A stretch of 64,000 nt of DNA from Patescibacteria group bacterium (GCA_038063415.1 JBBTVD010000006.1:9948-73947), one strand, 5' to 3'. Positions 17,441 to 35,735 are shown, counted from the first letter of the stretch. Notes: a model not told the origin generated them from the sequence alone. Numbers and translations: made by a program.

Positions 17441-18264
17441 TGTGATTTCCCAAAGTTAATCTGTTGCATCCACTCTTTTTGATTATGCGCTGACATAAAT
17501 GATGGATCTTGAGAAACCATAGCAAAAAGTATGGACATAACTGGTTTACTCTCTTTATCGTAAGGGAAAGTTAGTAAACAAATAAATCCCATTGATTCAG
17601 AAGAAATAGAAGAGCGAAGATCATCTGTAGCCTTCTTTAAATCGATACTCAAGTTTGTTTCACTTGAATATGGCATGACTAGAACACAATTAATGCTTGC
17701 GGGTTTTTGAAAGTACTTTTTATATATTTTAAGTCCTTCAGTAAGTTGATAATTAGGATTGCCTTTAACAGAAATCTTTGGGTTGATCATCAAAGATTTT
17801 AATTCTAACGGAATAGATATAGTCTCTTTAGCGGTGTTTTTTGGTAATCCAAGTAAAAAACCGTCCCAGCTACCTTTTCTGAAATGTGCTTTTACACCTA
17901 TTGTCTGATCAGGGAGTTGCCATGATGGAATTAACGTATAGTCAGTGCTATGTTTGCCTAATGTGTATGTCGTCTGGAGCACTCCTACCAAAATAGCTAG
18001 CTCGATTGCTCTCAAATCATTATCAAAGTCGAACTCGTTGAGAAGTTGGATATCCTTAGCTCTTTTCATGAGTACATTTTGCAAATGCTCAGTGTTAGAT
18101 AGCTGTTTGGAATTGCTGAGCAACTCTTGCTCGAAATACTTTTTTATTTGTCTGTAGAGATATTTGACATCATATGCGGCCTGAAAATTTATTGTTCCGT
18201 TGACCGTTTTGGCTAAAATATTTATGACCTTTGGTTTATCATTCTTCAAAACTGGACTTTCCAT
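17437..18264 (-). CDS. hypothetical protein, gene 2 of the operon
   Basis: 275 aa, no recognisable motif. Translationally coupled to the downstream gene. Confidence 0.55.
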   Translation of the reverse strand: MESPVLKNDKPKVINILAKTVNGTINFQAAYDVKYLYRQIKKYFEQELLSNSKQLSNTEHLQNVLMKRAKDIQLLNEFDFDNDLRAIELAILVGVLQTTYTLGKHSTDYTLIPSWQLPDQTIGVKAHFRKGSWDGFLLGLPKNTAKETISIPLELKSLMINPKISVKGNPNYQLTEGLKIYKKYFQKPASINCVLVMPYSSETNLSIDLKKATDDLRSSISSESMGFICLLTFPYDKESKPVMSILFAMVSQDPSFMSAHNQKEWMQQINFGKSQ

Positions 18265-18276: not shown

Positions 18277-19953
18277 TTATAGTTCAATAGGTTTGCCATC
18301 TTTACCAACAATTGTTTCTCTAATTTTCTTATCTTTTCTTGGGTATTTCTTCAAAAACTCTTGATTCTCTGAAACCAGATAAATAGTGTAGTAAATCTGT
18401 CCTTTTTCATTCTTCAAGTCGCGACCTTTTAGCAACCCCTCTCTTTTTAATTTACCTCTTGTCGCAGGATGTACCCCAAAGTCTGATTCTATCTGCCAAT
18501 CTTGGAAGTAAATATTATCCTTGTCATATCTATGCTTTAGTGGAGGAATCACTCCTGATTTGATATTATTCCAGCAATTTCTGCACCACAAGCCATTTAG
18601 CGTCCACCAAATGTCTTTTCCATATGCTCCTTCACCACAAATTCCGCAAGAATACGGCCCTTTACCATCATCAAGGAAGAATCCTTCTGGCTCTTTCTCC
18701 AGCCTTCTTTTTCGTGTTGCTTCAATACCATCAAACTCTCCAGACATTTTTGCGAGCTGTACGAGATTATGGTTCGCATACTTAGCTCGCTTTTCTGGAT
18801 CTATTTTTGATTTAGAAGCTTTAACCTCTTTTTTAGCTCCTACCAACTCATGCAGATCTTCTTCTTGTTCGTACGCTTTCAGAGTGCCGGAGAGATATCC
18901 AATGCGGTAGCGTATCCCATCACTCATTAGTCTCCAATTGGTGTCTTCTAATGTGTCTTTCAGGAGCTTCTTGAGAGTTGCTTCACTTATATTAGGATTT
19001 CGTGTTGAATTAGCATCTAGAACATTAAAGGGAATCGTAACAAACCTTCCCATATCTGGTTTATCCAGCGTGAACTTAACATATTTTTCCTTCTCTAGTT
19101 TTTCAGTAAGCAGTTTCTCGACTTCAAGAACAGTTAACCTTTTTAGATTGACTGCCGTTTGGTAGGCTTTGTCATCGTATTTCTGTTTTTCTTCTTCATA
19201 TACCTCATGACCTACTTCCATGGCTTCAAGTGTTTCAACGTGTTCTATTCCATCCTTTTCATTTAAACAAAACTCTTCTCGATACTTCTCAAGAAGCTTT
19301 TTGCCTTCTTCGTCCTTACTCTTTTGCTCTTCCTTCCATTTTTTGTGTTCCTCATCATGTTTACCAAGATCCTCAATTTCAATTTTTGTATAACCACAGG
19401 CTTTGCATTTGTGTTTCCAAGTAATGATTTTGCCTTTTCGAGTAGCTATTATATCTATTTCTTCTTTGCACTTTGGACAAAGATCAGGTTTTGAAACGCG
19501 AATCTCACCATCGTCATATACCCACTGTTGTTTCTCGCAGTTACTGCATTTAAAAAGAAACATCATCCTTATGATTGGGCTGTCGTAAGTAGAGTCGAGA
19601 TGTTTTGTGATATTGAAATGCATCGGAGCATTACAGAGAGGACAGACAATACCTTCGGGAGTTGGAGTGTAATCTTGCTTATCTTGTTTTAACTTATCTT
19701 CTTCCATCCACTTCTGGATAGTTTCTTGCTTCTTCTCATACCTTTTGCCTTTTACAACAAGAAGCATTCGACTGAGCATGAGATTTACATCGTGTAACTT
19801 ATCTTCTTGGGAAATATCTTTTATTTCTTGGCTAGTTAGGCTTTTTTGATAAATATCCTGGAACATTTTTACCGTATCGAGGCATTCTTCAACGGTATGA
19901 AGATCGTAGCGATCTATATAGTGTTGCTCATCTTCCAGGTATTTCATTGGCAA
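18277..19953 (-). CDS. multi-zinc-ribbon hypothetical protein, first gene of the operon
   Basis: 558 aa with at least three CxxC...CxxC pairs (CPLC/CSNC, CPKC/CKAC, CGIC/CRNC) and charged coiled-coil-like linkers. No enzymatic motif recognised. Confidence 0.6.
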   Translation of the reverse strand: MPMKYLEDEQHYIDRYDLHTVEECLDTVKMFQDIYQKSLTSQEIKDISQEDKLHDVNLMLSRMLLVVKGKRYEKKQETIQKWMEEDKLKQDKQDYTPTPEGIVCPLCNAPMHFNITKHLDSTYDSPIIRMMFLFKCSNCEKQQWVYDDGEIRVSKPDLCPKCKEEIDIIATRKGKIITWKHKCKACGYTKIEIEDLGKHDEEHKKWKEEQKSKDEEGKKLLEKYREEFCLNEKDGIEHVETLEAMEVGHEVYEEEKQKYDDKAYQTAVNLKRLTVLEVEKLLTEKLEKEKYVKFTLDKPDMGRFVTIPFNVLDANSTRNPNISEATLKKLLKDTLEDTNWRLMSDGIRYRIGYLSGTLKAYEQEEDLHELVGAKKEVKASKSKIDPEKRAKYANHNLVQLAKMSGEFDGIEATRKRRLEKEPEGFFLDDGKGPYSCGICGEGAYGKDIWWTLNGLWCRNCWNNIKSGVIPPLKHRYDKDNIYFQDWQIESDFGVHPATRGKLKREGLLKGRDLKNEKGQIYYTIYLVSENQEFLKKYPRKDKKIRETIVGKDGKPIEL

Positions 19954-20195: not shown

Positions 20196-21536
20196 ATGAA
20201 AAATATATCAATCCAAACAGTCGAAGTACCAATCAATGATTTAATCCCAGCTGATTACAATCCGCGCAAGCATGATGATATAGCAACAGAGCAACTCAAA
20301 CAAAGTATTACACGTTTCGGCCTTGTCGATCCAGTTATTGTCAACTCATCTCCAGATCGTAAGAACATTATTATTGGTGGGCACTTTAGATGGGAAGTAG
20401 CTAAAACACTTGAATATGAGACAGTCCCTGTAGTCTATGTCGATATTCCTGATCTTGAAAAAGAAAAGGAATTAAACCTTCGCCTCAATAAAAATACTGG
20501 TGAGTTTGATTGGGATCTACTCGCTAAATTTGATGAGTCATTTCTGACAGATGTTGGTTTCTCCAGTGGAGAACTTGATGGAATTTTTGATGTCGATGTA
20601 CCAGAAGAGTTTGACCTCGAAAAAGAACTTAAGAAATTAAATATCCAAAATATTAATACCCAAAAAGGTGATATATACGATTTGGACGGTAGCCGTCTTA
20701 TGTGTGGCGACTCAACAATAGAAGAAGACTTTCTAAAACTAATGAGTGGTGAGAAAGCGGACATGTGTATGACCGACCCACCATATATTTTGGACTACCT
20801 TCATGGCAAGAAAAAGCATGGCAAACCAATAACGGGCTTCGGTGCTAAAAGAGATAGAAGATATTTGGAAACAGACTCTCTCCCTCCTGATTTCACTGAA
20901 AAGTGGATGGGCAATATAAACAAGATTCAAAAAGAACATTTCAGCATTATTGTCTACGAAAACTGGAAAAACTTAAGGACTATCTGGGGTGAGATGGAAA
21001 AGTATTGGAAAGTGAAAAACATGATTGTCTGGCATCTGCCAAATAGACATCAGGGATTTTCAGCTAAATATAAATTCTTTTCCAAACATGATATCGCCAT
21101 GGTTGGTGCTTCTCCTGACAAAGATATTCCATTTAATCTCGAGGAGGAAATTGATGGACTCCAAGAAGAATATGAAACGGCTCTCTACGCCATCGCTGGA
21201 AAACCTCACTGGGAAGGCTACCAAAAAGGTAGGAAGAACCAACCAACTGATTTCATCGAATATGTGGCTTCAGACGAAAAACATTCCGGGCAAGGTGTGA
21301 TCTTTGGGACTAAACCAGTCGAGATTCTCATTCCCTATATAAAGATGCTCACAAAACGTGGAGATTTGGTTGTTGAGCCATTCTCGGGCAGTGGTAGCAC
21401 TCTCATTGCCTCGACCAAGATGAAGCGTCGTTGTTTCGGCATGGAAAAGTCTCCAGTATATGCGGAGGTCATCATCAAACGTTGGGAAAAGTTAACAGGC
21501 AAGAAACCCAAAAAAATATATGGACAAAACAATTGA
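20196..21536 (+). CDS. ParB-like nuclease domain fused to a DNA N6-adenine/N4-cytosine methyltransferase
   Basis: 446 aa. ParB N-terminal motifs (NPRKHD..., GGHFRWE). Methyltransferase motif IV DPPY (MTDPPYILDY) precedes motif I FSGSGST (beta-class order). Fusion typical of phages and plasmids. Confidence 0.8.
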   Translation: MKNISIQTVEVPINDLIPADYNPRKHDDIATEQLKQSITRFGLVDPVIVNSSPDRKNIIIGGHFRWEVAKTLEYETVPVVYVDIPDLEKEKELNLRLNKNTGEFDWDLLAKFDESFLTDVGFSSGELDGIFDVDVPEEFDLEKELKKLNIQNINTQKGDIYDLDGSRLMCGDSTIEEDFLKLMSGEKADMCMTDPPYILDYLHGKKKHGKPITGFGAKRDRRYLETDSLPPDFTEKWMGNINKIQKEHFSIIVYENWKNLRTIWGEMEKYWKVKNMIVWHLPNRHQGFSAKYKFFSKHDIAMVGASPDKDIPFNLEEEIDGLQEEYETALYAIAGKPHWEGYQKGRKNQPTDFIEYVASDEKHSGQGVIFGTKPVEILIPYIKMLTKRGDLVVEPFSGSGSTLIASTKMKRRCFGMEKSPVYAEVIIKRWEKLTGKKPKKIYGQNN

Positions 21537-21939
21537 AAAAAGACAGTCAAAAAATAAAGAACAATTGTTGGAGATATTAAAGAAGACTCCGATTGTTCAA
21601 ATCGCTTGCGAAAAAGCTGGAATTGGTCGAGCAACTTATTATCGTTGGAGAAAAGAAGATGCTGGATTTGCTCAGGTGAGCGATCAAGCACTTCTGGATG
21701 GAAACTTGCTTGTAAATGATATGGCAGAGAGCCAAATGATGAGTGCCATTAAAGACAAAAACATGACTGCTATCATATTTTGGCTTAAGCACCATCATCC
21801 TGCCTATGCAACCAAGATAGAAATCATGGCTTCAAATAAAAACCAAGACATAGTTCTTACCGACGAACAAAAAGAACTCTTAAACAAGGCATTAGAAATG
21901 GCGGCACTTATTCCGCCTCAAGAAAAAGATCATGAATGA
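21520..21939 (+). CDS. HTH protein, probably a terminase small subunit-like protein
   Basis: 139 aa. HTH IACEKAGIGRATYYRWRK. Overlaps the upstream gene and immediately precedes the large terminase. Confidence 0.5.
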   Translation: MDKTIEKRQSKNKEQLLEILKKTPIVQIACEKAGIGRATYYRWRKEDAGFAQVSDQALLDGNLLVNDMAESQMMSAIKDKNMTAIIFWLKHHHPAYATKIEIMASNKNQDIVLTDEQKELLNKALEMAALIPPQEKDHE

Positions 21940-23479
21940 ACAACAAAAGATAATTAAACAGATCCAAGAAAGTCCTGATTTTCGAAAAGCATTAACGCAG
22001 GAGAATTTTTATTGGTTCTTCACTACCTACTTTCCTCACTACATCACCTGTCCAACTGCTGATTTCCAAAAGGAAATCTTTAATCTTATCCAAAATGAGG
22101 AATTAGAAAAGATTTCTATTACCGCCTTTCGTGGCTCGGCTAAATCAACAATAGCAACCTTGGCACTACCTATCTGGGCAATGGTTGGTAAGCCAAGCAA
22201 GAAATATACCCTGCTTGTGAGTTTAACTCAGGGATTGGCAAAACAAATCCTTACCAATATAAAACAGGAACTTTCATCAAATGAACTGTTGATACGGGAT
22301 TTTGGACCATTCTCAGAAGTAGCCGATGAATGGCGATCCAATTCACTAGTGATCCCGCATTACAATGCTAGAGTTTCAGCTATATCTCAAAGCGAAAGAA
22401 TCAGAGGACTCAGGCATCGACAATACCGACCCGACCTTATTATCATCGATGATGTTGAGGACTTAGAATCAGTTAAGACGAGAGAAAGCAGAGATAATCT
22501 ATGGAACTGGTTTTCTGGTGAGATAAAGCCAATTGGAGATAGTGGCACTAGAATAATTACTGTAGGCAACCTGTTACATGAGGATTCGCTGATGATGCGA
22601 ATTAAGCAAAATATCCAAACAGGGGGAACGGGTGGTATTTATAAGGAATTTCCATTGTTAGACGATAACGGAAATATTGCTTGGCCTGGAAAGTTTCCAA
22701 CCATGGAACACATTGAAGCCAAAAGAAAAGAGATCGCTGATGAGTCAGCATGGTACCGAGAGTTCTTGTTAAAAATTATTGCTGACGAAGACCGAATTGT
22801 AAAAGGTTCTTGGATAAAATCCTACGACATTCTTCCTAGCTCTGATCGCTACCCAGCCAGACTTGTAGCAATTGGTGTTGACTTAGCTATTTCACTTTTG
22901 GAATGGGCGAACTTCACGGCCTTAGTTCCAGCGTATGTCGTGGGTTACGGTGACAATCTTCAAGTTTACATTTTGCCTTATATCTTAAACAAAAAATTAG
23001 ATTTCCCACAAACAATTCAGGCAATAAAAACACTGACCGAGCAACTTAAAGTAGGTTATAGACCATATCCTGTAGCTTACATAGAAAGTGTTGGCTATCA
23101 AAGTGCCGCAGCGCAACAACTGACAGTAGAACACGTACTTGCTGAGGAAGTGAGAATTCCACATATGGATAAGAGATCAAGACTATCCATAGTGTCTCCC
23201 CTTATTCAACAAGGGAAAGTATTTTTTCCAAGAACAGGTGCAGAAGTATTAATAGGTCAACTTGTAAATTTCGGTGTGGAGAAATACGATGATTTAGCGG
23301 ATGCTTTTACCTTGCTAATGGCAAAAGTCATAGAGTCAGACCGACCATCAAGCAGACGTAAACCGGGCGAAGTGTCTGCAACAGAACCTGATCCTCATCC
23401 TGGATTAACGTGGTCTTTGCAACACATGAATGATTTAGGATTTGATTTTGAACCAATTACACTTGATACGAAATTCTAA
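21932..23479 (+). CDS. terL: phage terminase large subunit
   Basis: 515 aa. Walker A-like AFRGSAKST, Walker B LIIIDDVED, C-terminal RNase-H-like nuclease region. Architecture of Terminase_6-type TerL. Confidence 0.8.
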   Translation: MNEQQKIIKQIQESPDFRKALTQENFYWFFTTYFPHYITCPTADFQKEIFNLIQNEELEKISITAFRGSAKSTIATLALPIWAMVGKPSKKYTLLVSLTQGLAKQILTNIKQELSSNELLIRDFGPFSEVADEWRSNSLVIPHYNARVSAISQSERIRGLRHRQYRPDLIIIDDVEDLESVKTRESRDNLWNWFSGEIKPIGDSGTRIITVGNLLHEDSLMMRIKQNIQTGGTGGIYKEFPLLDDNGNIAWPGKFPTMEHIEAKRKEIADESAWYREFLLKIIADEDRIVKGSWIKSYDILPSSDRYPARLVAIGVDLAISLLEWANFTALVPAYVVGYGDNLQVYILPYILNKKLDFPQTIQAIKTLTEQLKVGYRPYPVAYIESVGYQSAAAQQLTVEHVLAEEVRIPHMDKRSRLSIVSPLIQQGKVFFPRTGAEVLIGQLVNFGVEKYDDLADAFTLLMAKVIESDRPSSRRKPGEVSATEPDPHPGLTWSLQHMNDLGFDFEPITLDTKF

Positions 23480-23480
23480 A

Positions 23481-23894
23481 CTAAATTCCAAGAATCTGTT
23501 TCTTTTTCTGATCAAATTCTTCTTGAGACAAGATACCTTTTTCTTTTAACTCATTTAGTTTAACGAGCTCATCAGCATCGCTTGTCTGATGATTGTTTCC
23601 TGAGAAATGAGCTTGTGCGTCATATATAGCTTTTTGAACCTCTTTCTTTTTGGAAGTTGGTACGGCGTATTTCTTTCCTCCTGTTGTTTCTAAAGTTATT
23701 TTCCATATACCCATCATAGGTAGTTGAACGCTTGCTATCTGATTTATCGGAATACTTTGAGAACCAACTCCTGCCTTGAATTCAACTCTGTTGGGGAAAA
23801 TCTTAATCCAAAAGCCAGCATAGCTTGTTTCGTATAAAGGTTTTTCTCCGGTTTGTTGTTTATTTCCAAATAGTCCCATTTTGTTCACCTCCAA
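23481..23894 (-). CDS. hypothetical protein with a C-terminal SHOCT domain
   Basis: 137 aa. C-terminus ELVKLNELKEKGILSQEEFDQKKKQIL is the SHOCT signature. Confidence 0.6.
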   Translation of the reverse strand: MEVNKMGLFGNKQQTGEKPLYETSYAGFWIKIFPNRVEFKAGVGSQSIPINQIASVQLPMMGIWKITLETTGGKKYAVPTSKKKEVQKAIYDAQAHFSGNNHQTSDADELVKLNELKEKGILSQEEFDQKKKQILGI

Positions 23895-24004
23895 TCATAA
23901 GTTAATTGCTTAGTCCACCTTAGCATAAAATACCCCTGTATTCAAGGCTAAACTCTTAGTGTGGCTAAGTGGAGTAATGGTCAAGCGTTTTAGACAATAT
24001 ATAC

Positions 24005-24217
24005 ATGAGGAAAAACGCAACGCTTCCAAAAGCCATAGGGAAGAAAATCCAGAAGCGAAGAAAACAAATAGGGATTACTCAGGAGGAAGCCGCCGAAAGA
24101 GCAGGTATCAGCCGAGCCTATATGGGGTATATTGAACAAGGTAGACACGCTCCTTCTCTCGAAGTACTCCAAAAAGTAGCAAAAGCCCTCAAATCTTCCA
24201 TGAGTGACTTCGTTTAA
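24005..24217 (+). CDS. XRE-family HTH transcriptional regulator (paralog of 6402-6605)
   Basis: 70 aa, IGITQEEAAERAGISRAYMGYIEQGRHAPS. Confidence 0.75.
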   Translation: MRKNATLPKAIGKKIQKRRKQIGITQEEAAERAGISRAYMGYIEQGRHAPSLEVLQKVAKALKSSMSDFV

Positions 24218-24245
24218 GGAATTTCTCCTGTACTACCTAAATTTC

Positions 24246-24266
24246 GACCTTTTTGAGGTCTTTTTT
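24246..24266 (+). terminator. rho-independent terminator after the XRE gene
   Basis: gacct-ttttg-aggtc hairpin followed by tttttt. Confidence 0.5.
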
Positions 24267-24279
24267 CGTATAAAAATGG

Positions 24280-24308
24280 TTGAAAAAGCCTAGCTAACTC
24301 TATATAAT
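24280..24308 (+). promoter_or_regulatory. sigma70-type promoter (TTGAAA-N17-TATAAT) for the HTH_17/hsd operon
   Basis: ttgaaa at 24280-24285, 17-nt spacer, tataat at 24303-24308. Confidence 0.55.
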
Positions 24309-24319
24309 ATTGTTATCAA

Positions 24320-24508
24320 TTGGTAAGTAATGTTCATATGGAAAAACTACTAACAATCAAAGAGGCAGCTGAGATACTCAATGTCCACGCCAACACCCTA
24401 CGTTTGTGGGATAAAAAAGGCATTCTGGTAGCTGTGAGGATAGGAGAAAAGCGTACTAGACGTTATCGACAGTCAGATTTAGAAAAGTTTATTAGTCACA
24501 AGAAGTAA
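24320..24508 (+). CDS. HTH_17 (MerR/excisionase-family) DNA-binding protein (paralog of 6106-6288)
   Basis: 62 aa, LLTIKEAAEILNVHANTLRLWDKKGIL. True start may be the internal Met (MEKLL). Confidence 0.7.
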   Translation: MVSNVHMEKLLTIKEAAEILNVHANTLRLWDKKGILVAVRIGEKRTRRYRQSDLEKFISHKK

Positions 24509-24517
24509 TAATTAACT

Positions 24518-26032
24518 ATGGCAAAAAATAATAAAACAGAATCATTCGAAAAAACACTCTTTAAAGCTGCTGACAAGCTCAGAAAGAATATGGACGCGGC
24601 TGAATATAAGCATATTGTGCTTGGTTTGATTTTTCTAAAGTTTATCTCTGACTCTTTCGAAGAAATGTATATAAAATTGTCGGAAGGTAAAGGTGACTAT
24701 TCTGGAGCAGATCCCGAAGATGCTGATGAATATCGTGCAGAGAACGTCTTTTTTGTGCCTCAATTAGCTAGGTGGTCATATCTCTACTCTCGGGCAAAGC
24801 AACCTACAATTGGAACTGATATTGACTCAGCGATGGAGGCAATTGAAAAAGAAAATCCCACACTAAAAGGAATTCTTCCAAAAGTTTATGCTCGTCCCAA
24901 TCTTGATAAGACTGCTTTAGGTGGACTTTTGGACTTAATAGGAAATATTGCTCTTGGCGATACGGCTTCGAAGACTAAAGATTTACTCGGAAAAGTCTAT
25001 GAGTACTTCTTGGGTGAATTCGCACTTGCTGAAGGCAAAAAAGGCGGGCAGTTTTATACTCCACGTAGTGTTGTTCAAATCCTAGTAGAAATGCTTGAGC
25101 CATATAAAGGTCGTGTTTTTGATCCATGCTGTGGTAGCGGTGGAATGTTTGTTATGAGTGAAAAATTCGTTCAGTCGCATCAAGGAAAAATTGATGATAT
25201 TTCAATTTATGGTCAAGAAAGCAACCAAACAACTTATCGACTATGTCGAATGAATCTTGCCATTCGTGGCATTGATGGCTCTCAGGTTAAATGGAACAAT
25301 GAGGGATCATTCCTTAATAATGCACACAAAGATCTTAAGGCAGATTTTGTCATTGCTAATCCACCTTTTAATGACAGTGATTGGAGCGGTGAGCTACTTC
25401 AAAATGATGCTAGATGGAAGCATGGCACCCCCCCAGCTGGAAATGCTAACTATGCTTGGATTCAACACTTCTTATATCATCTTAGTCCTACTGGTAAAGC
25501 AGGTTTCGTTTTATCTAAAGGCTCCTTAACTACTAAAACTAGTAACGAAGGTGAAATAAGAAAAAATCTTATTGAATCAGATTTAGTTGACTGCATTGTC
25601 AATCTCCCAGCCAAGCTATTTCTTAACACACAAATTCCAGCTTGTTTGTGGTTTATGAATCGCAATAAAACTCAGAAAAAAGGAGAGATACTTTTTATTG
25701 ATGCTCGTAACCTTGGGCATTTAATTAATAGAAGAACACTGGAGCTATCAAATGAAAATATCCAGCAAATTTCCCAGACATATCATGATTGGAAAAATGG
25801 TAATGACTACGCAGATAAAGCAGGGTTTTGTAAATCTTCAACGATAGAGGATGTCAAAAAATTAGATTATGTTTTAACACCAGGTCGATATGTAGGGCTA
25901 CCTGATGAAGATGAAGAAATCAACTTCGAAGAGAAATTAGGTCAACTACGATCAGCTTTAAATGATCAAATTAACGAAGAGAATATCCTGAATAAAGAAA
26001 TTCTAGATAAACTTACAAAAATTAAGATATGA
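24518..26032 (+). CDS. hsdM: Type I restriction-modification methyltransferase subunit
   Basis: 504 aa. [19 protein letters not shown] (AdoMet motif I), VIANPPFN (motif IV). Confidence 0.9.
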
Positions 26033-27198
26033 ATAGCAATTCTAATAATATTTGGAGAGAATATCGGCTTGAAGAAGTTGTAGAAACTTTTATTGATTAT
26101 CGTGGAAAAACTCCAACTAAAACCGCATTTGGAGTGCCTCTTGTTACTGCAAAAATAATAAAGAATGGACGCTTACTCCAACCAAATGAATTTATAGATG
26201 AGAATTATTACAAAACTTGGATGACACGCGGCTTCCCAGAAAAAAATGACGTCTTATTAACTACAGAGGCTCCGCTTGGTGAAGTAGCATTGTTAAACAA
26301 TCCTAAGGTTGCATTGGGACAGAGGGTAATTACGATTCGTGGAAAAAAAGGATTTTGTGACAGCATATTTTTAAAATACTATTTCCAAAGTCCATTAGGA
26401 CAAAACTCTCTTTTATCTAGAGCGCAAGGTAGTACCGTTGAAGGAATTAAAGCGGCTGAACTTAAAAAGATGAAGATTCTGATGCCAAATTATGAAACCC
26501 AAATTGAATTATCCAGAGTATTATTTGTGCTTGACCAAAAAATTGACGTTCTTCTTGAGCAAAACAAAACTCTTGAGGATCTAGCGGAAACATATTTTCT
26601 TAAATTATTTGAAGCAGTCTCAGGCGAGAATTCTGGAACACTTGGTGACTACATTGATTTAGATCCTAAAGAAAAAATTAATCGCAACGAAGAATATCGT
26701 TTTTTTGATATGAAGACACTTTCCGAAAACTCTATGTCCATTGCAAACGGGCTGTATCGTATCGTAAATTCGGCATCTTCATTTAGAAATCTTGATACTT
26801 TATTAGCCAAAATTACGCCATGTTTAGAAAATGGAAAAACTGGTTTTGTCATGAATTTGGAAGATAATGAAGTTGCAAGAGGCTCAACAGAGTTTATTGT
26901 AATGAGGTCAAAAGGTTTAGTTAGTCCATATTGGATTTATTGTCTTGCCAGAAGCAAGAATTTTAGAGATGAAGCAATACAATCAATGACGGGTACGTCA
27001 GGTAGGCAGAGGGTTCAAACCTCACAGCTAAAAAATATTAAGGTTAGTTTTAATAAGAGAGACATGGAATCATTCAATGAGATGTGTAAAGGATTTTTTA
27101 ATAAGGTTAAAGAAAATTCTTCTCAAGTGCGCACATTGATAACTCTTAGAAACTTATTATTACCTAAACTAATGAGTACAGAGATTAGATTAAATTAA
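26029..27198 (+). CDS. hsdS: Type I R-M specificity subunit
   Basis: 389 aa with two target-recognition-like halves separated by conserved repeats. 4-bp overlap with hsdM. Confidence 0.8.
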
Positions 27199-27204
27199 AT
27201 TAAT

Positions 27205-28050
27205 ATGGCAAATTTAAGTAGCGTTGATAAGGTTAAAATTGAAAGACTTTTCGGAATGGGAAGTGGTTATGTGTTGGATTTTTCTAACCGCTCACTTCAG
27301 GACTTTATTTTAACCTGCTGCAAAAAAGATATTTTTAATGATAGATATAATCAAGGGTCTGGGTCAAAAGCCAATCGGTTAAGAGCTTTTTGGGATGCCG
27401 AATTAGATAGTGTTGTTGGGAAAGTCTTAACTGAAATGTTGGAGTATTGGAGAACACAAAAAGCATATTCTGATACTGGTATTCCTAAGGGGGAAGAGAC
27501 ACTATACAAAGATTGTTTAGTTATCGCACAAAGATTATCTGGTAAGACTACTAAAACAGAAGTCACTGAGGAAGAATTTCTACAAAAAGAATATAAAATT
27601 ATTTCTGTATCTGCATTAAATATAGATGGAAATGTCGGCGATGTAGTTAAACAAAGAATCAAAGAAATTGATATATGTATGAAGGCAAAAGCACCCCTTG
27701 CCTCAATTTTTCTGGCGGGAAGCACCCTAGAAGGAATACTTTTAAGCACCGCTATTAGCAATCCAAAAGTTTTTAACCAGTCCACATCTGCACCTAAAGA
27801 TAAAGAAGGAAAGGTTTTAAAGTTGAATGAATGGAAATTAAGTCAGTTAATTGATGTCGCCTGCGAAATTGGCTATTTGGATTTAGATATTAAAAAATTT
27901 AGCCACTCACTGAGAGATTTTCGTAACTATATTCATCCTTATGAACAAGCTTTAGCTGGATTTAACCCAGATGATGATACTGCTCAGATATGCTGGCAGG
28001 TATTAAAGGCTGCCATATCAGATTTAGGCAAAAAACAAACAACACTATGA
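27205..28050 (+). CDS. hypothetical protein embedded between hsdS and hsdR (possible HEPN-like motif)
   Basis: 281 aa. C-terminal [13 protein letters not shown] loosely fits Rx4-6H(xY). Contains AQRLSGKTT, a possible degenerate P-loop. Position is analogous to prrC-type genes inserted in hsd loci. Stop overlaps the hsdR start (ATGA). Confidence 0.55.
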
Positions 28051-31000
28051 CACAAATATTTGAATCAGATGTAGAAAAATTAACGGTCGACCTATTGATT
28101 AATCAAGGGTTTACTTATCTGTCTCCTGAAGAACAGGAATTAGAGCGGCAGAATCTAAAAGACGTTTTATTAGTAAATCGATTGAAGGTTTCCATAGATC
28201 GTTTAAATCCATCAATTACTGCTGACGCAAAAGCCCAAGCTCTAAAACAAGTTTTAAACCTTCCAACACAAAACCTACTTGAGAACAATGAGGCATTCCA
28301 CCGAATGCTTACAGAAGGCATCGAAGTTGAATATATGAGTAATGAAGGTGTCAGAGGTGAAAAAGTTTGGCTTGTTGATTTTAATGATATTGCCAACAAC
28401 GAACTTATCGTCACCAATCAATTTACTGTTATAGAAAATAACATTAACAAAAGACCAGATGTCATTATCTTTATTAATGGTTTGCCTCTCGTTGTTATCG
28501 AACTTAAAAACCCTACTGACGAAAATGCTACGGTTCAAAAAGCATTTACTCAACTACAAAATTATAAAAATGCAATTCCTTCACTTTTTTACTACAACAG
28601 TATTTTAATTGCGTCCGATGGTCTAGATGCTAAAGTCGGAACTATTTCTTCTGATTATTCTCGTTTTCTTGCTTGGAAATCTAAAGATGGATATAGGGAT
28701 GACAAGACAGTTGTTCCTCAAATAGAAACGCTGATCGATGGAATGTTAGTAAAAAATGTTCTTATTGATTTGATCAAACAATTCATTGTCTTTGAAAAAT
28801 CCAGTCATATCGATAGTAATACCGGGCTAACGACTATTAGTACAATCAAGAAAATAGCTGCTTATCACCAGTACTATGCAGTTAATAAAGCTGTTGAATC
28901 TACAATAAGAGCGTCAGATGACGATAGCTTAGAATCTACTGCTTTATTAGTAAGAGAAAAACCAGAAGAGTATGGTTTATCTTCAACTGTTAAACAGCCT
29001 AAGGGTGATCATAAAGCTGGTGTCGTGTGGCACACGCAAGGTAGTGGAAAATCTCTTTCAATGGTTTTTTATGCTGGAAAAATTGTATTGGCACTTAATA
29101 ATCCCACCGTGGTTGTCATAACAGATCGCAATGACCTAGACGAGCAATTATTTGATACATTTGCCAACTGTAAGCAACTCCTTAGACAAGATCCTGTTAA
29201 GGCTGAAAATCGCGATCACCTTAAAAAATTACTGAAAGTAGCTGGTGGTGGAATTGTATTTACAACAATTCAAAAGTTCTTTCCTGAGGATGGATCATCA
29301 ACTTACGATGAACTTTCAGACCGCAGTAATATTATTGTTATTGCTGATGAAGCCCATCGAAGTCAGTACGGATTCGGAGCCAAAACTACTTATACAGTTG
29401 ATGGCGTAAAAACGGGTTACGGGTTTGCAAAATATCTAAGAGATGCATTGCCATCAGCCTCATTTATTGGCTTTACGGGTACTCCTGTAGAAAAAGAGGA
29501 TGCAAATACCCCAGCAGTCTTCGGAAATTATATAGACGTTTATGATATTGCTAAGGCCGTAGAAGACGGTGCAACAGTTCGTATTTATTACGAATCAAGA
29601 CTTGCTCAGATTCATCTTAAACCAGATGAAAAGGCACAACTAGATGCAGAAGTAGAAGCTATCACAGAAGGTGAAGAAAGTACTGCTAAAGAAAAGGCAA
29701 AAGCAAAATGGGCTCAGCTGGAAGCTGTAGTTGGACACAGAGACAGGCTTGGAGTAATTGCTTCTGACATTGTTGACCACTTCGAGAAGCGACAGGAAGT
29801 CTTTGAAGGCAAGGCAATGATTGTTGCTATGAGTCGGCGAATTGCTGTTGAGCTCTTTGAAGAAATTGTTAAATTACGACCAGACTGGTTTGACAAAGAT
29901 CTTAGAAAAGGTGCCGTTAAAGTTGTAATGACATCCACCTCTTCCGATCCAGAGAGTTGGCAAATTCACAACACCACTAAACAAAACCGTAAGGATCTTG
30001 GAGAACGATTTAAAAATCCTATCGATCCATTAAAACTCGTTATAGTGCGTGATATGTGGCTCACTGGTTTTGACGCGCCATGTCTTAACACGATGTACGT
30101 TGATAAGCCAATGCAGGGACATAACCTTATGCAAGCGATTGCTCGTGTAAACAGAGTATTTAAAGATAAACCAGGTGGATTAATTGTTGATTACATTGGT
30201 ATTGCTTCTGATCTAAAGAATGCTTTAGCGACATATACCGCAAGCGGTGGTGAAGGCACGCCAACTTTAGATCAAGAAGAGGCTGTTGCGGCGATGCTTG
30301 AAAAATTTGAAATCGTTGAACAAATGTTTGATCAATACGACTTTGAACCTTACTTTACCGCTGATACTCATAAAAAATTGACCATTATCCTCGAGAGCCA
30401 AGAATATATTCTTGGACTTGAAGATGGCAAGAACCGTTTTACCAAGCAGGTAGATCTCCTATCTAAGGCTTTTGCGCTATCAGTTCCCCATCCAAAAGCA
30501 ATGGAGATAAAAGATGAAGTTGGATTTTTTCAAGCAATTAAAGCCAGACTTGTAAAGTTTGAGCCAACTTGTAGTGGAAAGTCAGATGCTGAAATTGAAA
30601 CTGCAATAAGACAGATTGTTGATAAGGCCGTGGTCTCTGATGGAATTGTTGATATATTCGATGCGGCCGGTATCAAGAAACCAGATATTTCAATTCTTTC
30701 TGATGACTTCTTAGCTGAAATTCAGGGCATGGAACGAAAAAACTTGGCAATGGAGCTTTTGAAAAAGATTCTCAATGACGAAATCAGATCACGAGTTAGA
30801 AAGAATTTCATTCAGAGCAAAAAGATGTCTGAAATGCTTGAGAATGCTATTAGAAAATATCAAAACAATTTATTAACTACAGCACAGGTTATAGAGGAGC
30901 TGATTAAACTTGCTAAAGATATTCGAGAGGGAGACAAGCGAGGTGCATCATATGGTCTAACGGATGATGAACTAGCTTTTTATGACGCTTTGGCAATTAA

Positions 31001-31238
31001 CCAAAGTGCAATGGAGGTTCTTGGTGATGCTCAACTTAGGGATTTATCAAGAGTACTTGTGCAGAGAGTTAAATCAAACACTTCAATTGATTGGACTATC
31101 AAAGAAAGTGTACAAGCCAAGTTAAGAGTGATTGTTCGTCGCACTTTACGACAATTTGGTTATCCACCAGATGCCCAATTACTTGCGACCGAAAATGTGT
31201 TGAAACAGGCTGAGCTGTTGGCCGATGATTGGAAATAA
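28047..31238 (+). CDS. hsdR: Type I restriction enzyme R subunit
   Basis: Start taken at the Met of [12 protein letters not shown]. Walker [13 protein letters not shown] box [10 protein letters not shown], helicase C-terminal motifs. Confidence 0.9.
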
Positions 31239-31247
31239 CAAAAATTT

Positions 31248-34010
31248 ATGAATGATGAAAAAATACTCATTAAACAATTCTTTCAAAATTTCCTTGTAAA
31301 AGAAAAGGGTAAAGACAATATTAGTAATGAATATGTTGCCTTCTTAAAAATTCTGTGGAACGGTCTCGATGATTTAATATCTAAAAATAAAATTGCTCGA
31401 AAGATTTACATATTAGAACATATTGAAAAATATCTTATTGAAGATACTTTTCGAACTCAAATAGATTTAAGCGAACTGCCAATTGCCAGTGAACTTGCTG
31501 CATCTCAAGATACAAACACACCTGAGATCACACTTAAAGATATTGATCTAGTCAACTTCCGAGGTTTTAGAGCTAATACTAATGGGAGCGGAAGAAAAAT
31601 TAGATTTCACGAAAAAGTGACTTTAATTTTTGCTCCAAATGGTGGAGGAAAAACTAGTCTATGTGAAAGTATTGAATGGGCACTTACCGGCGACACTTAC
31701 GAACATACAAAAAGAAAAACAGATTCAACACTTAATTATTTTCAAAATCGAAGTAATGCAGATCCGACATATCAAAACACTAAGCTTTCGTTTTTAAACA
31801 ATCAACCTACTGTTCCCAATTTAATTTTTGATCGATGTCTTCTAGAAAAAAATCGAATAGACAAATTTGCGAAACTTGCAATGCAGCCTAATAAAGATCT
31901 GCAAGAAATTCTTGGGGAGTTGTTTGGATTTTCTGATGTTGTAGATTTTTTTAAAGAGTTTGGCCAAGATCTTTCACCCACAGATAACGAAAAAGGTCGC
32001 CCAGGAAGAGAAAACTGGCAGACATGGTTAGAGTGGAGCAATAAAAAAAGTGAACTAGAAAAAATATTAGACGAATCAAAAAAAGAAGAGAAAAAAGCTA
32101 GTGAGGATTTGGAGAAACTCACAGGAGAAAAGAGTTTTGATGACAAAAAAGTTGAGATTGAAGAAAAAGGGAAAGAACTCCGCATCAAGCTTGAGAGCCT
32201 TGAGAAAAATTCTAGCAAGCAATTTTCTACAAAATCTTTTCAAGACAAGATAACTTTACATAAAGATAAAATCGAGCAGTGGAAAAAACTTGATAAGGAT
32301 ATATCTGATAATGCTAAGGATCTTGATTTTGAAAGCCTTTTCCAAGCAGCTAATAATATTTTCAAAAATAATTACAGTGATAATAAATGTCCGCTTTGCG
32401 ATACTCCTATTGAACAGAAACCAGAGAATCCCAATCATGTTTGTGTAGTTACTAGTCCTCAACTAAAGACAGAACAAGAATTGAAGAAACTTAAAAAGCT
32501 AACCGATTGGAAAGTTGAAAGGAATAAACTTGAAATAGATTTAAAAGGTACTTGCTTTAGAGAAATAAGGGACGATTGGCAAAAGATACAACATAATTTA
32601 ATAGATGAAAATTGGAAAGACATCGCGGGCGAAACTGAAAAACCATTAATTCCAGATGTCAATCTTATTGAGATTGAATCTAAGCTTGATGGGAATACAA
32701 ACTCATTTATTGACGCATATGAACTTATATTAGGTAAGGATTTCACTGCATTGGCTGAGTTAGAGGGAAAAGTAACATCTTACAAAAATTTGAAGGATGA
32801 GTTATTGAAAGATAAGCCACAGAAAGAAATTGAGATTCAAAATCTACGTGATGAATTTGCCAAACTACAGGAACAAAAAAATATACTTTCTGCAAAACAG
32901 CAAATCACAAAAAGTAGCGATGAAAGATTGAAAAAGATCCTAAATCAATCCAGCAATTCAGATTTATTTAAAAAGATGTTGGACGTTTATCCAGATTTTT
33001 ATAATGATCTGCAAAATTTTCAATCTGGTTCGATCTTATCTGAAGGTGCTGATATTGATGACTATGTAACGGGCTTTTACCGAGCTTTGAACTTACATGA
33101 TAACGTTGGCGAGATAATAAAAGAAATTAAATTCCCCAAAGGACTTCAAGAAGATTTTTGTTTAATATTTGAAAGCAATAATACCTGTAATGCCCTAGAT
33201 ATCCTCAGCGAAGGGCACTTAAAGACTCTTGGTCTTGCTGCTCTACTTGCCAGAGCAGCTAAGTACAATACGTCCCTGCTTGTCTTTGATGATGCTATCA
33301 ACGCTATCGATTCTGACCATAGAGATAACATTGCTTGTTTATTATCAGGAAGTTTCTCTGACGAAGAAGGAGTTAGTTCATTTGGAGAAAAGTGGGATCA
33401 AATAAAACAATATATAAAAGTATGCCAATTTGTAATAACGTCCCATGACCGCTTCTTTGATGAAAAAATCGCCAATCTATTTTCTAAGGACGAACAATTA
33501 AGATATGTTTTATATTGTGGAGCTGAAGGAGTTGATTTTTGTGAAAAAGGTAATCCAGCCAACTTTGAAGCTAAAGTCGAAGGCTTTTTAAACCCAGATA
33601 CTCAGGATGTTCGCTCAGCAATATTTTATTGTCGTATCTGGTTAGAAGAAATACTTATGGACATCGCAGCAAATTTTAAAAAGCCAAGTAATGGTAAACA
33701 AATCGATTTTTCCAATACTATTGATAAAAAGTCTCGCAAATTAAAAAATCCTGAATTGGCAACTGTAATTCGTAGCTTGGTTTCAAATTTGAAAGTAAAT
33801 GAGGCTTCAGATGATGAAAAAATAACAGCTGGCATTTTAGACCAGATTTATCAAGAAAAGGAAGGAAAGTATATTTGGTTTTTCGAGATCTTGAATCAAG
33901 AAAGTCATTATCGTCGACTTGATCACGTAGATATCTCTAATGCTCCAACAAGTAATGAAGTTCAAGCAATCTTTAATAAGATTCAAGAGATACAAACTCT
34001 CAATACTTAA
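31248..34010 (+). CDS. Rad50/SbcC/SMC-like ABC ATPase with a central CxxC zinc-hook-like motif
   Basis: 920 aa. N-terminal Walker A FAPNGGGKTSLCESIEWAL (RecF/SMC type). Central KCPLCDTPIE inside a predicted coiled-coil. C-terminal signature LSEGHLKTLGLAALLA and Walker B/D-loop LLVFDDAINAIDSDH. Confidence 0.75.
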   Translation: MNDEKILIKQFFQNFLVKEKGKDNISNEYVAFLKILWNGLDDLISKNKIARKIYILEHIEKYLIEDTFRTQIDLSELPIASELAASQDTNTPEITLKDIDLVNFRGFRANTNGSGRKIRFHEKVTLIFAPNGGGKTSLCESIEWALTGDTYEHTKRKTDSTLNYFQNRSNADPTYQNTKLSFLNNQPTVPNLIFDRCLLEKNRIDKFAKLAMQPNKDLQEILGELFGFSDVVDFFKEFGQDLSPTDNEKGRPGRENWQTWLEWSNKKSELEKILDESKKEEKKASEDLEKLTGEKSFDDKKVEIEEKGKELRIKLESLEKNSSKQFSTKSFQDKITLHKDKIEQWKKLDKDISDNAKDLDFESLFQAANNIFKNNYSDNKCPLCDTPIEQKPENPNHVCVVTSPQLKTEQELKKLKKLTDWKVERNKLEIDLKGTCFREIRDDWQKIQHNLIDENWKDIAGETEKPLIPDVNLIEIESKLDGNTNSFIDAYELILGKDFTALAELEGKVTSYKNLKDELLKDKPQKEIEIQNLRDEFAKLQEQKNILSAKQQITKSSDERLKKILNQSSNSDLFKKMLDVYPDFYNDLQNFQSGSILSEGADIDDYVTGFYRALNLHDNVGEIIKEIKFPKGLQEDFCLIFESNNTCNALDILSEGHLKTLGLAALLARAAKYNTSLLVFDDAINAIDSDHRDNIACLLSGSFSDEEGVSSFGEKWDQIKQYIKVCQFVITSHDRFFDEKIANLFSKDEQLRYVLYCGAEGVDFCEKGNPANFEAKVEGFLNPDTQDVRSAIFYCRIWLEEILMDIAANFKKPSNGKQIDFSNTIDKKSRKLKNPELATVIRSLVSNLKVNEASDDEKITAGILDQIYQEKEGKYIWFFEILNQESHYRRLDHVDISNAPTSNEVQAIFNKIQEIQTLNT

Positions 34011-34012
34011 TC

Positions 34013-34768
34013 ATGTCCAAATACTACAATCCAAATCGCACAAGAAATCTATATAACGCAAACTCTTCAGAATTATTTCGTTTAAGTCGTTCTAAGATTG
34101 ATCTTTTCTTAAATTGTCCTCGTTGTTTTTACCTTGATCGTCGATTAGGAGTGGGTCAACCACCTGGATATCCATTTTCTCTCAATTCTGCTGTAGATAA
34201 GCTTCTAAAGAAAGAATTTGATACATACAGAGCCAATAAGACGTCACATCCATTAATGAAAACGTACGGTATCGATGCCGTTCCACTTGCTCATGAAAAA
34301 ATCGATGAATGGAGAGATTCATTGCGGGCAGGTATAACTTTCAAAATTAATGATGAAAATGTTGTCATAACTGGTGGCGTAGACGACGTGTGGGTAACTC
34401 CAGAAGGTGAATTCATCATTGTGGACTACAAAGCGACTTCTAAAGACGCTGAGGTAACGCTCGATGCAGACTGGCAAATCGGTTACAAACGGCAGATGGA
34501 GATATATCAGTGGTTATTCCGTCAAAACGGCTTTAAGGTTTCTCCTGTAGGTTACTTTGTGTATTGTAATGGCGATACCGACCCAGCGGCATTCGACGGG
34601 AAACTGGAGTTTGATATAAAAGTAATTCCTTATGAAGGCAATACCGATTGGGTTGAACGAACGATTTTAGATGCAATCAAATGCCTCAAGGCAGATGAAA
34701 TGCCTGATCCAGGCGAAGATTGCGATTTTTGCAAGTACCGTCAGGCCGTACGACAATTTGAGAAATAA
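34013..34768 (+). CDS. Cas4/RecB-like PD-(D/E)xK nuclease with cysteine pairs compatible with an Fe-S cluster
   Basis: 251 aa. GGVDDVW...EGEFIIVDYK (D/ExK), QMEIYQW (QxxxY motif), N-terminal CPRC and C-terminal CDFC. Starts 3 bp after the SMC-like gene. Confidence 0.75.
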   Translation: MSKYYNPNRTRNLYNANSSELFRLSRSKIDLFLNCPRCFYLDRRLGVGQPPGYPFSLNSAVDKLLKKEFDTYRANKTSHPLMKTYGIDAVPLAHEKIDEWRDSLRAGITFKINDENVVITGGVDDVWVTPEGEFIIVDYKATSKDAEVTLDADWQIGYKRQMEIYQWLFRQNGFKVSPVGYFVYCNGDTDPAAFDGKLEFDIKVIPYEGNTDWVERTILDAIKCLKADEMPDPGEDCDFCKYRQAVRQFEK

Positions 34769-34780
34769 CTCATTCTAAAC

Positions 34781-34815
34781 CTGGACTTCCTCGCTTTTTC
34801 CCGATACCTTGTGCT
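34781..34815. repeat. CTGGACTTC...CCGATACCTTG motif, copy 2 of 3
   Basis: ctggacttcctcgctttttcccgataccttgtgct. Closely related to the copy at 35700-35735. Confidence 0.4.
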
Positions 34816-35076
34816 GGGATGGATAGCAAAAATCAAAAAGACAAGGTACTCGTACTTCTCCGAAGGTCAGAAAAATACTTCTACAAGTATCTCCTCACGC
34901 ATGATTCTGTGTATTATTGATCGATTTTTCTCCGTAACTAAGAAATTAAGGAGATTAATAGAGAAATTTGAGCATAAATGAGATGTTGAGTGTCACTTAG
35001 CATTTACGCATGAAAACTGATATAATCTTGCTAAGCTAGACTAAGCATTTAGCCTGAAAAAGGAGGTGATATACAT

Positions 35077-35625
35077 ATGAAGAAATTACTTAAATGGGTA
35101 GGAATAGGATTTATCATCCTTATAGTAATCGGAGTTATTGGCAGTATGGGAAGTGACAGTAAAAAAGTAGGATCAACTACTGATACTACTCAAACTTCAA
35201 ATACAAAAGAGCAACCAACTCAGGAAACGTACAAAGTTGGTGATAAAGTCCAAATGTCAGATATTATCCTTACTGTAAATAAAGTAGAAACAGCCCAAGG
35301 AGGTCAGTACACAAAGCCATCTGAAGGTAATCAGTGGATTGATGTAAACATGACTCTTGAGAATACAGGATCAAGTCAGCAGTACATTACAACAATGGGT
35401 CAGATGTTCGTCATAGATGGCGAAAATAATCAGTACCAAGTTGCAGTAACTGGAAAAAGACTAGAAAATGCTGGTTCTTTAGGAATGGATGGTGCATTAA
35501 TTGCAAAAGCCAAGAAAACTGACTGGGTAGGATTTGAAGTACCAAAGACTGCAAAAGGTCTCAAGCTTCAGTACAACGCAAGTTTTTATAGTAATAAGAA
35601 AATATTGGTCGATCTTGGAATGTAA
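35077..35625 (+). CDS. DUF4352-like membrane-anchored secreted protein
   Basis: 182 aa. Signal-anchor MKKLLKWVGIGFIILIVIGVIG. DUF4352-type beta-rich domain (GDKVQM...NQWIDVNMTLENTG...FVIDGENNQY). RBS aaaaaggaggtgat. Paralogous context to 6726-7175. Confidence 0.7.
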   Translation: MKKLLKWVGIGFIILIVIGVIGSMGSDSKKVGSTTDTTQTSNTKEQPTQETYKVGDKVQMSDIILTVNKVETAQGGQYTKPSEGNQWIDVNMTLENTGSSQQYITTMGQMFVIDGENNQYQVAVTGKRLENAGSLGMDGALIAKAKKTDWVGFEVPKTAKGLKLQYNASFYSNKKILVDLGM

Positions 35626-35649
35626 TTATTACTATCTAAAGACGAAAAG

Positions 35650-35676
35650 TGCCTGAATAACATCGGGCATTTTTTG
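35650..35676 (+). terminator. rho-independent terminator
   Basis: tgcctga-ataaca-tcgggca stem (one G-U pair) followed by tttttt. Confidence 0.55.
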
Positions 35677-35699
35677 TGATGTTTTATAGTATTTTGAAG

Positions 35700-35735
35700 C
35701 TGGACTTCTCGAGAGGTTCCCGGTACCTTGACCAC
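35700..35735. repeat. CTGGACTTC...CCGGTACCTTG motif, copy 3 of 3, immediately upstream of or overlapping the recombinase B start
   Basis: ctggacttctcgagaggttcccggtaccttgacc. Confidence 0.4.

Follow-up and report, generated by a model that had tools for sequence, protein, structure and literature searches.

HEPN domains are four-helix up-and-down bundles with an Rx4-6H motif close to where the last core helix starts. In PrrC and RloC, the nuclease is regulated by an N-terminal ABC/Rad50-like ATPase, and PrrC is, to our knowledge, almost the only mechanistically understood case among the genes nested in restriction operons. It is almost always embedded in type I restriction-modification (R-M) systems (bioRxiv 10.1101/2024.01.29.577857). 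A systematic prediction of R-M-embedded HEPN genes dates from 2013 (PMC3710099). The same survey placed DUF4145 among the HEPN families, with fusions to many partners, AbiJ-NTD1 being one of them (Anantharaman et al. 2013, PMC3710099), and separately reported DUF4145 genes in operons with R-M systems (PMC3710099). Tests have since been made of DUF4145 HEPN defense proteins, namely RAZR and Ishtar, and of HEC-08 as an embedded HEPN protein. RAZR, a DUF4145 HEPN RNase, is activated by phage proteins and needs R146 and H154 for both defense and RNA cleavage (PMC13017515), and HEC-08 needs its HEPN histidine (bioRxiv 10.1101/2024.01.29.577857; bioRxiv 10.64898/2026.07.06.735840). Here, we analyzed a stretch of 64,000 nucleotides from a Patescibacteria group bacterium (GCA_038063415.1 JBBTVD010000006.1:9948-73947, hereafter the window), in which a gene coding for a protein of 281 amino acids lies between the hsdS and hsdR genes of a type I R-M operon. 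This gene most likely encodes a small two-domain suicide RNase that belongs to a widespread family.

The open reading frame (ORF) at 27205-28050, on the plus strand, was confirmed from the sequence as a genuine gene. The stop codon of hsdS ends at 27198 and is followed by a gap of six nucleotides (ATTAAT) and the ATG of the 281-amino-acid gene at 27205, while its TGA (28048-28050) overlaps the ATG of hsdR at 28047 in the sequence ATGA; in the protein translated from 28047, the HSDR_N domain (Pfam) starts at residue 6. The original prediction, made from the sequence alone, had described this gene as embedded in the type I operon and tightly coupled to both of its neighbors, and in this it was right. 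The gene is probably translationally coupled with hsdM-hsdS-hsdR. An antisense ORF of 144 amino acids with low-complexity composition (27351-27785, minus strand) runs inside it and was taken as spurious, since the sense frame is strongly conserved.

The protein belongs to a large family. We found 6,210 homologs at an E value of ≤1e-3 in a collection clustered at 90% identity, with 45 to 96% identity and most of them full length (275 to 290 amino acids), and 2,781 representatives of 50%-identity clusters matched it, some of which share one domain only. A scan of one genome per species gave at least 573 encoding loci, 80 of which were surveyed for their genomic context. These 80 loci span Patescibacteria, Bacteroidota, Pseudomonadota, Acidobacteriota, Planctomycetota, Nitrospirota, Spirochaetota, and Actinomycetota, as well as Methanosarcinaceae, Micrarchaeota, and others, i.e., many bacterial phyla and some archaea. 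The closest relatives (85 to 96% identical) are Patescibacteria. Despite this breadth, the protein has no match in Pfam (at the default threshold), NCBIfam, PADLOC, or PHROGs, and no dedicated model for the subfamily exists in Pfam, NCBIfam, PADLOC v2, or PHROGs. A search for phage-encoded homologs found none, and from this lack we regard the gene as a host-side gene. A single-sequence search of the PDB returned 3d5n only (E value of 0.98) and was uninformative. The AlphaFold2 model (mean predicted local distance difference test [pLDDT] of 89.2) is all-alpha, with two domains and no beta-sheet. Its pLDDT dips (to 68) around residues 113-121, which suggests that this segment is the interdomain linker.

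Several lines of evidence place the C-terminal domain in the HEPN superfamily. PF13643 (DUF4145, HEPN clan) matched 25 of 32 diverse relatives scanned singly at an E value of ≤10 (best E value of 2.2e-5), and one relative (P0016) has a precomputed match to it; the window protein aligns with an E value of 0.21, residues 154-245 falling on profile positions 2 to 71 of 88. Modeled alone with AlphaFold2, residues 118-281 gave a pLDDT of 85 and a predicted template modeling score of 0.82. A Foldseek search of the PDB with this domain-only model put HEPN structures in places 1, 2, 4, 5, 6, and 7, namely 7ae8 (a HEPN toxin), 1o3u, 1wwp, 1ufb, and 1wol (classical HEPN), and 3o10 (sacsin HEPN), and the list contained more of them further on: 2q00 and 2hsb (classical), 5yjc (Csm6), and 8xeh, 6m6u, 7bxo, 8xdj, and 5yep (HEPN-MNT toxins). 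The probabilities of the HEPN matches were 0.4 to 0.8, with TM-scores of 0.4 to 0.59. The full-length model gave noise in the same search, the sole HEPN match being 1ufb at rank 24.

The conserved parts of the domain include the stretch with arginine and histidine that the original prediction had pointed out as HEPN-like (residues 237-246, 27913-27942). In the alignment of the 32 diverse relatives, L236, R237, F239, R240, N241, I243, H244, and P245 are invariant, and so are R151, E154, G172, S173, L175, E176, and G177 elsewhere in the domain. The pattern R.F[RK]N.[IVL]HP was found in 72 of 74 species-level orthologs, and the two exceptions are conservative (M for I243 in one, K for R237 in the other). 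The resemblance noticed there is thus more than chance. In the AlphaFold2 model, R237-x6-H244 sits between the helix formed by residues 227-236 and the helices formed by residues 245-251 and 255-280. Both the four-helix bundle core and the conserved Rx4-6H of the superfamily were found in this domain. It also recurs behind other N-termini, for instance TPR repeats in P0214. From sequence and model, we assign the C-terminal domain to the DUF4145 lineage, as a divergent HEPN domain whose R...H site is predicted to be intact.

We also considered Abi_C as the identity of this domain, as hinted by the UniRef name of one member of the family (P0044, [quoted passage not shown]). No relative out of the 32 matched Abi_C at an E value of ≤10, and when hhalign was used to compare the C-terminal profile with an Abi_C protein, the probability was 0.9%, so this identity was rejected. 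The name probably reflects the common N-terminal region or an older annotation.

The N-terminal domain is a module that is shared with other effectors. Its invariant residues among the 32 relatives are G21, V23, S54, K55, R58, R60, W63, and G72, within the motifs GYVLDFSN and SKANRLRxFW. When plasmids were searched with tblastn, residues 1-113 alone matched (40 to 43% identity), and the targets were the N-termini of "abortive infection family proteins" and of one "restriction endonuclease." One of these plasmid proteins (274 amino acids) has a C-terminal Abi_C domain and adjoins an Eco57I-type methylase and a BsuBI/PstI endonuclease (type II R-M). Hhalign joined the family profile to the N-terminus of this Abi_C protein over 113 residues with a probability of 99.7%, an E value of 1.8e-26, and 39% identity, the motifs GYVL[DN]FS and SKANR[LM]RxFW being common to both, and found no alignment between the C-terminal domains of the two. 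The same N-terminal domain is fused to Mrr_cat in a Leptospira protein and to TIR in one of the representative matches (P0272). Together with the two HEPN families, these fusions to Mrr and TIR bring its effector types to four.

A role as sensors has been proposed for the AbiJ-NTD modules, whose fusion partners include AbiJ, DUF4145, Ymh, Mrr, and TIR (PMC3710099). The N-terminal module appears, from its sequence relationships, to belong to this class: it is mostly alpha-helical, within the range of about 100 to 140 amino acids, and common to AbiJ-type HEPN proteins and other effectors, and its behavior matches the 2013 description. It does not match PF18860 (AbiJ_NTD3), which was present in the searched library, and hence it is not NTD3.

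The original prediction had also noted a P-loop-like stretch, and this did not hold up. The string A108-x4-G113-K114-T115 of the window protein does fit [AG]x4GK[ST], but only G113 is invariant among the 32 relatives, K114, T115, and T116 being variable, and in the AlphaFold2 model the string forms the end of the helix 95-112 and the linker of an all-alpha protein, with no preceding beta-strand. Conservation and fold both reject a P-loop, and we regard the string as a chance resemblance to Walker A.

The genomic contexts of the family are divided between R-M operons and other places. Type I genes, which were recognized solely by similarity to the Hsd proteins of the window (the type I fraction is therefore a lower bound), were found in 38 of the 80 species-level loci, with the homolog always co-oriented and between hsdS and hsdR. 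The gene directly upstream is hsdS in 25 of these 38 loci; hsdR is directly downstream in only 8, and usually 0.6 to 3.8 kb of other genes intervene. Elsewhere, the gap between hsdS and hsdR carries RhuM, AbiJ_NTD3 with Abi_C (6 loci), Schlafen AlbA_2 with HATPase_c_4 (6 loci), Macro, or an M78 peptidase with DUF4411, i.e., the familiar repertoire of accessory genes embedded in R-M systems, and its contents point to a hotspot for cargo more than to a dedicated partnership. RhuM (PF13310, E value of about 1e-110) comes directly after the homolog in 9 loci (those named are L009, L017, L018, L023, L031, L050, L057, and L059), including one without type I genes (L018), and the homolog and RhuM may form a recurrent two-gene cassette.

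In 6 loci from Alphaproteobacteria or Bacteroidota, the homolog comes directly after an MmeI-type enzyme, whose stop codon it overlaps in 5 of the 6, often with genes for a DEAD-box helicase and a T5orf172 protein behind it. An alphaproteobacterial array of this sort (L061, L070, L071, L076, and L080, also L022) consists of the MmeI-type enzyme, the homolog, a DEAD/ResIII helicase with a PMBR repeat, and T5orf172/MUG113; in L071, a UvrD helicase lies upstream of it and an HsdR-like gene downstream. The array looks like a multigene defense system.

No type I genes were found in 42 of the 80 loci, and for 36 of the 80 there is no partner of either kind, type I or MmeI, within 8 kb. Among these 36, there are defense-like neighbors (C5 methylase with a HerA-like ATPase, Schlafen-type helicase, DruA, ApeA_NTD1, AbiJ, AAA_21, DUF3800, and HNH) and, in some, housekeeping neighbors (aconitase, glycosyl hydrolases, carboxyl transferase, and aminotransferase). 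The closest relative (85% identical) lies outside any hsd operon, after a helix-turn-helix (HTH) gene and with convergent neighbors; a type IIG enzyme is encoded 5.5 kb away on the opposite strand. In three independent assemblies, the contig of this closest relative ends about 160 to 195 nucleotides upstream of the homolog (L001, L084, L085, and L086), which suggests a repeat or a strain-variable junction there.

Context is tied weakly to phylogeny. Nearest neighbors shared their context in 46 of 74 cases versus 31 expected (p of about 0.002), mean identity was 49% within context classes versus 47.6% between them, and ortholog pairs that are 83% and 77% identical occupy different contexts. Clustering of the neighbors across the 80 loci found no general conserved partner gene.

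Taken together, we consider it probable, with modest confidence, that the protein is an autonomous abortive-infection protein, sensor and RNase in one chain, carried as cargo in the hsdS-hsdR hotspot. A single chain combines the all-alpha module of the AbiJ-NTD class with the divergent HEPN domain of the DUF4145 lineage, and from the HEPN literature we infer the steps that would follow. Two HEPN domains would dimerize and join R237 (or R240) and H244 into a metal-independent endoRNase site, which the N-terminal module would keep off until an infection cue is sensed; once active, the RNase would cut tRNA, rRNA, or mRNA, and with translation halted the infection would be aborted. As mobile defense cargo in the hotspot, co-expressed with the restriction enzyme, the protein would add a second, RNA-directed layer beside the DNA-directed defense, and it would not need the restriction enzyme in order to work. 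The autonomy is backed by the 42 loci without type I genes, by near-identical orthologs in differing contexts, and by the position of the closest relative outside an hsd operon, and many solitary copies together with rapid context switching argue against an obligatory partnership with R-M systems. A role in defense is backed by neighbors such as MmeI, DruA, AbiJ, ApeA, AAA_21, HNH, C5 methylase, and RhuM.

Several observations weigh against this interpretation. The score of the window protein against PF13643 (12.1 bits) is under the gathering threshold (23.1 bits), and because of this score strict membership in PF13643 does not apply; the domain is a divergent relative within the DUF4145 lineage, not a curated Pfam member. 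The E values of the domain-only Foldseek search were 0.7 to 5, and since no individual match is significant, the support for a HEPN fold comes from the consistency of the list. At the sequence level, the family profile returned only FAM118B from the PDB (E value of 0.18), an uninformative match, and no HEPN protein. The R-to-H geometry is unusual, either Rx6H from R237 or Rx3H from R240, and one ortholog has K237. We found no experimental work on this subfamily in the literature, nor biochemical or genetic data for any member. Finally, the position directly after hsdS in 25 of the 80 loci and the overlap with the MmeI stop in 5 of 6 are a regularity that cargo does not explain, and it could reflect a functional link to the specificity/methylase module.

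This regular place directly after a gene that encodes a target recognition domain (TRD), in type I and in MmeI loci, is the best argument for a guard comparable to PrrC, which would be held inactive by HsdM/HsdS/HsdR or by the methylase-TRD part of MmeI until inhibition by Stp, Ocr, or ArdA frees the HEPN RNase and the cell dies. The tight coupling in the window (6 nucleotides after hsdS, ATGA overlap with hsdR), the constant orientation between hsdS and hsdR in 38 of 80 loci, with 25 copies directly after hsdS, the six copies behind MmeI-type enzymes, which also bear TRDs (5 of them overlapping the MmeI stop), and the excess of context concordance (46 of 74 versus 31 expected, p of about 0.002) all fit such a guard, and there is a precedent in PrrC-EcoprrI, the same proposal having been made for R-M-linked HEPN clades generally (PMC3710099). 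However, 36 of 80 copies have no type I or MmeI partner within 8 kb, some of them being next to aconitase or glycosyl hydrolase genes, the closest relative (85% identical) is not part of an hsd operon, pairs with 77 to 83% identity switch context, identity within context classes (49%) is barely above that between classes (47.6%), many unrelated cargo genes occupy the same gap, and the ABC ATPase that regulates PrrC is absent from the protein. The R-M-guarded mechanism of the original prediction received no direct support and is weakened by the share of type I loci (38 of 80), by the closest relative, by context switching, and by the cargo-like gap; a guard role is possible, unproven, and in our judgment unlikely. 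More doubtful still is a general guard of specificity modules, in which the N-terminal domain would bind to the TRD and methylase portion common to type I and MmeI-type enzymes and the HEPN RNase would become active once anti-restriction proteins of the DNA-mimic or Stp-like kind push that module aside or deform it. If true, it would be a PrrC-like backup without an ATPase that fits two classes of R-M enzymes, and the solitary copies would be recent escapes or guards of enzymes encoded elsewhere in the genome. The original prediction was to be abandoned if structure prediction gave no HEPN-like fold and homologs lay mainly outside R-M contexts; a HEPN-like fold was found, which speaks against abandoning it, and roughly half of the homologs are outside R-M contexts, which speaks for doing so in part.

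Two further explanations dispense with infection sensing or with killing. The HEPN protein could be a toxin that mainly stabilizes the R-M island or a mobile element after segregation, under the control of an unrecognized partner rather than through phage sensing: many HEPN proteins act as the toxin in toxin-antitoxin systems (PMC3710099), the operon lies in an island with a terminase gene and a large serine recombinase gene that adjoins a tRNA-Gln gene, and the family is highly mobile between contexts. We consider this quite improbable, given that there is no conserved small neighbor gene (the immediate neighbors are heterogeneous in the 42 non-type I loci), that the gaps of 6 and -4 nucleotides in the window leave no space for an RNA antitoxin, and that the fused N-terminal domain, common to other effectors, is typical of single-chain sensor-effector defense proteins. 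Even less probable is a noncatalytic accessory whose HEPN-like domain would bind RNA, nucleotides, or protein and modulate restriction or modification (e.g., restriction alleviation or specificity control) without killing. The existence of noncatalytic HEPN binders such as MtlR (PMC3710099), the weakness of the HEPN similarity, and the regular position after the specificity gene are compatible with it, but the R...H motif and its neighbors are invariant across phyla, which is what an active site would be expected to show, half of the copies lack any R-M enzyme that they could modulate, and the N-terminal domain is otherwise joined to overt effectors (the Mrr nuclease, TIR, and Abi_C).

The features of the window are collected in Table 1. 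From hsdM to the gene of the Cas4-like nuclease, all genes are co-oriented, with spacings of -4, 6, -4, 9, and 2 nucleotides, and a consensus scan found no terminator-like site on the plus strand within 24518-34768. Spacing and scan are consistent with a single transcript. The ATPase and Cas4-like nuclease pair behind hsdR may constitute a Lamassu-like addition to the R-M operon. We considered this pair as partners of the 281-amino-acid family and rejected them, since they do not co-occur elsewhere; the ATPase (31248-34010) has no homolog in any of the 80 related loci.

Table 1. Predicted features of the window around the 281-amino-acid gene (coordinates counted from the first nucleotide of the window)
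Feature	Coordinates	Strand	Evidence or remark
338-amino-acid ORF, DUF4209	16424-17440	-	PF13910, 1.8e-5; ~7 kb upstream
ParB_N + N6_N4 methyltransferase	20196-21536		island
Terminase large subunit	21932-23479		PHROG 38, 9.5e-77
Terminator-like hairpin	24246-24260		directly before promoter-like site
Promoter-like site TTGAAA-17-TATAAT, 11/12	24280-24308	+	upstream of hsdM; consensus match only
hsdM, type I N6-adenine methyltransferase	24518-26032	+	Pfam N6_Mtase 3.7e-113, HsdM_N 3.2e-24; stop overlaps hsdS start
hsdS, specificity subunit	26029-27198	+	Pfam Methylase_S 6.7e-17
281-amino-acid gene, two-domain, all-alpha, Abi-like HEPN protein (predicted)	27205-28050	+	ORF, homologs, AlphaFold2
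N-terminal domain, residues 1-113, AbiJ-NTD-type, presumed sensor/regulatory module	27205-27543	+	hhalign, fusions, conservation
AQRLSGKTT, residues 108-116, Walker-A-like	27526-27552	+	rejected as P-loop
C-terminal domain, ~residues 122-281, predicted RNase effector	27568-28047	+	PF13643 matches, domain model, Foldseek
R237-D-F-R240-N241-Y-I-H244, predicted HEPN catalytic motif (Rx6H, inner R-N)	27913-27936	+	conservation
hsdR, restriction subunit	28047-31238	+	Pfam HSDR_N 4.3e-46, SWI2_SNF2 1.1e-79, T1RH-like_C 1.7e-129
920-amino-acid SMC/ABC-type ATPase	31248-34010	+	9 nucleotides after hsdR; AAA_23 2.9e-13, PADLOC LmuB 4.8e-15
251-amino-acid Cas4-like PD-(D/E)XK nuclease	34013-34768	+	2 nucleotides after ATPase gene; PDDEXK_1 5.8e-15
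Large serine recombinase	35728-37062		island
tRNA-Gln gene	37244-37317	-	adjoins recombinase

The hsd operon lies in an apparent integrated island (20196-37317), which, besides the methyltransferase, terminase, and recombinase genes of Table 1, holds genes for an HTH protein, a SHOCT protein, and a DUF4352 protein. The island could represent the remnant of a prophage or a satellite-like element. The DUF4209 ORF upstream would be a second HEPN-type gene, because DUF4209 was equated with the C6orf70-type HEPN family of R-M-related operons in the 2013 survey (PMC3710099). The ORFs that flank it (17437-18264 and 18277-19953) have no Pfam match.

Genes nested in restriction operons are a productive source of second-line, RNA-directed immunity. 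This family is large, spread over many phyla and some archaea, and absent from the searched libraries, so that an annotation could reach thousands of "hypothetical proteins." Since the same protein is found inside and outside R-M operons, it offers a natural experiment on whether embedding means functional coupling or co-transfer, and its N-terminal module is a candidate general infection sensor.

Compared with known systems, the 281-amino-acid protein resembles PrrC, the anticodon nuclease embedded in EcoprrI, and RloC in being the product of a HEPN-superfamily gene inside a type I hsd operon, with RNA cleavage predicted as a second line of defense. Unlike them, it is all-alpha, has no conserved Walker A and no ATPase match in PADLOC, Pfam, or NCBIfam, and did not match PrrC or RloC in PADLOC; the suggestion in the original prediction that this is a family distinct from both is borne out. 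Whereas PrrC is nearly exclusive to type I systems, this family has 38 of 80 loci in them and 42 elsewhere. With the lactococcal AbiJ/Abi_C (PF14355) proteins, it shares an N-terminal AbiJ-NTD module followed by a C-terminal HEPN domain, the N-terminus being clearly homologous to that of the plasmid-borne Abi_C protein, but its C-terminal domain is not Abi_C. The lack of an ABC ATPase and of Abi_C therefore sets the family apart from PrrC/RloC and from AbiJ.

HEC-08 (a DUF3644 HEPN domain with zinc fingers, embedded in Hma systems) and Ishtar (a DUF4145 or DUF3644 HEPN domain, anti-plasmid) are likewise small single-gene HEPN defense proteins in or near other defense systems; their HEPN domain is N-terminal, however, their partner domains differ, and neither family came up in the searches run. 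RAZR (PD-T7-4) has the same single-chain layout, in which a C-terminal HEPN domain of the DUF4145 type follows a small N-terminal module, but its N-terminus is a zinc ribbon instead of an all-alpha AbiJ-NTD-like module and its R-H spacing is x7 instead of x6, and the family profile found no sequence-level match to any RAZR chain in the PDB. The closest correspondence is with the DUF4145/AbiJ-NTD architecture, in the weak but recurrent PF13643 matches over the core that includes R...H, the HEPN-like fold, the AbiJ-NTD-type N-terminus, and the frequent embedding in R-M operons; the differences are the score of the window protein below the Pfam gathering score (12.1 versus 23.1 bits) and a subfamily without its own Pfam, NCBIfam, or PADLOC model. 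The subfamily itself is thus without a model, and the kind of system it represents is already known, R-M-embedded HEPN genes having been predicted in 2013 with PrrC as their experimental paradigm.

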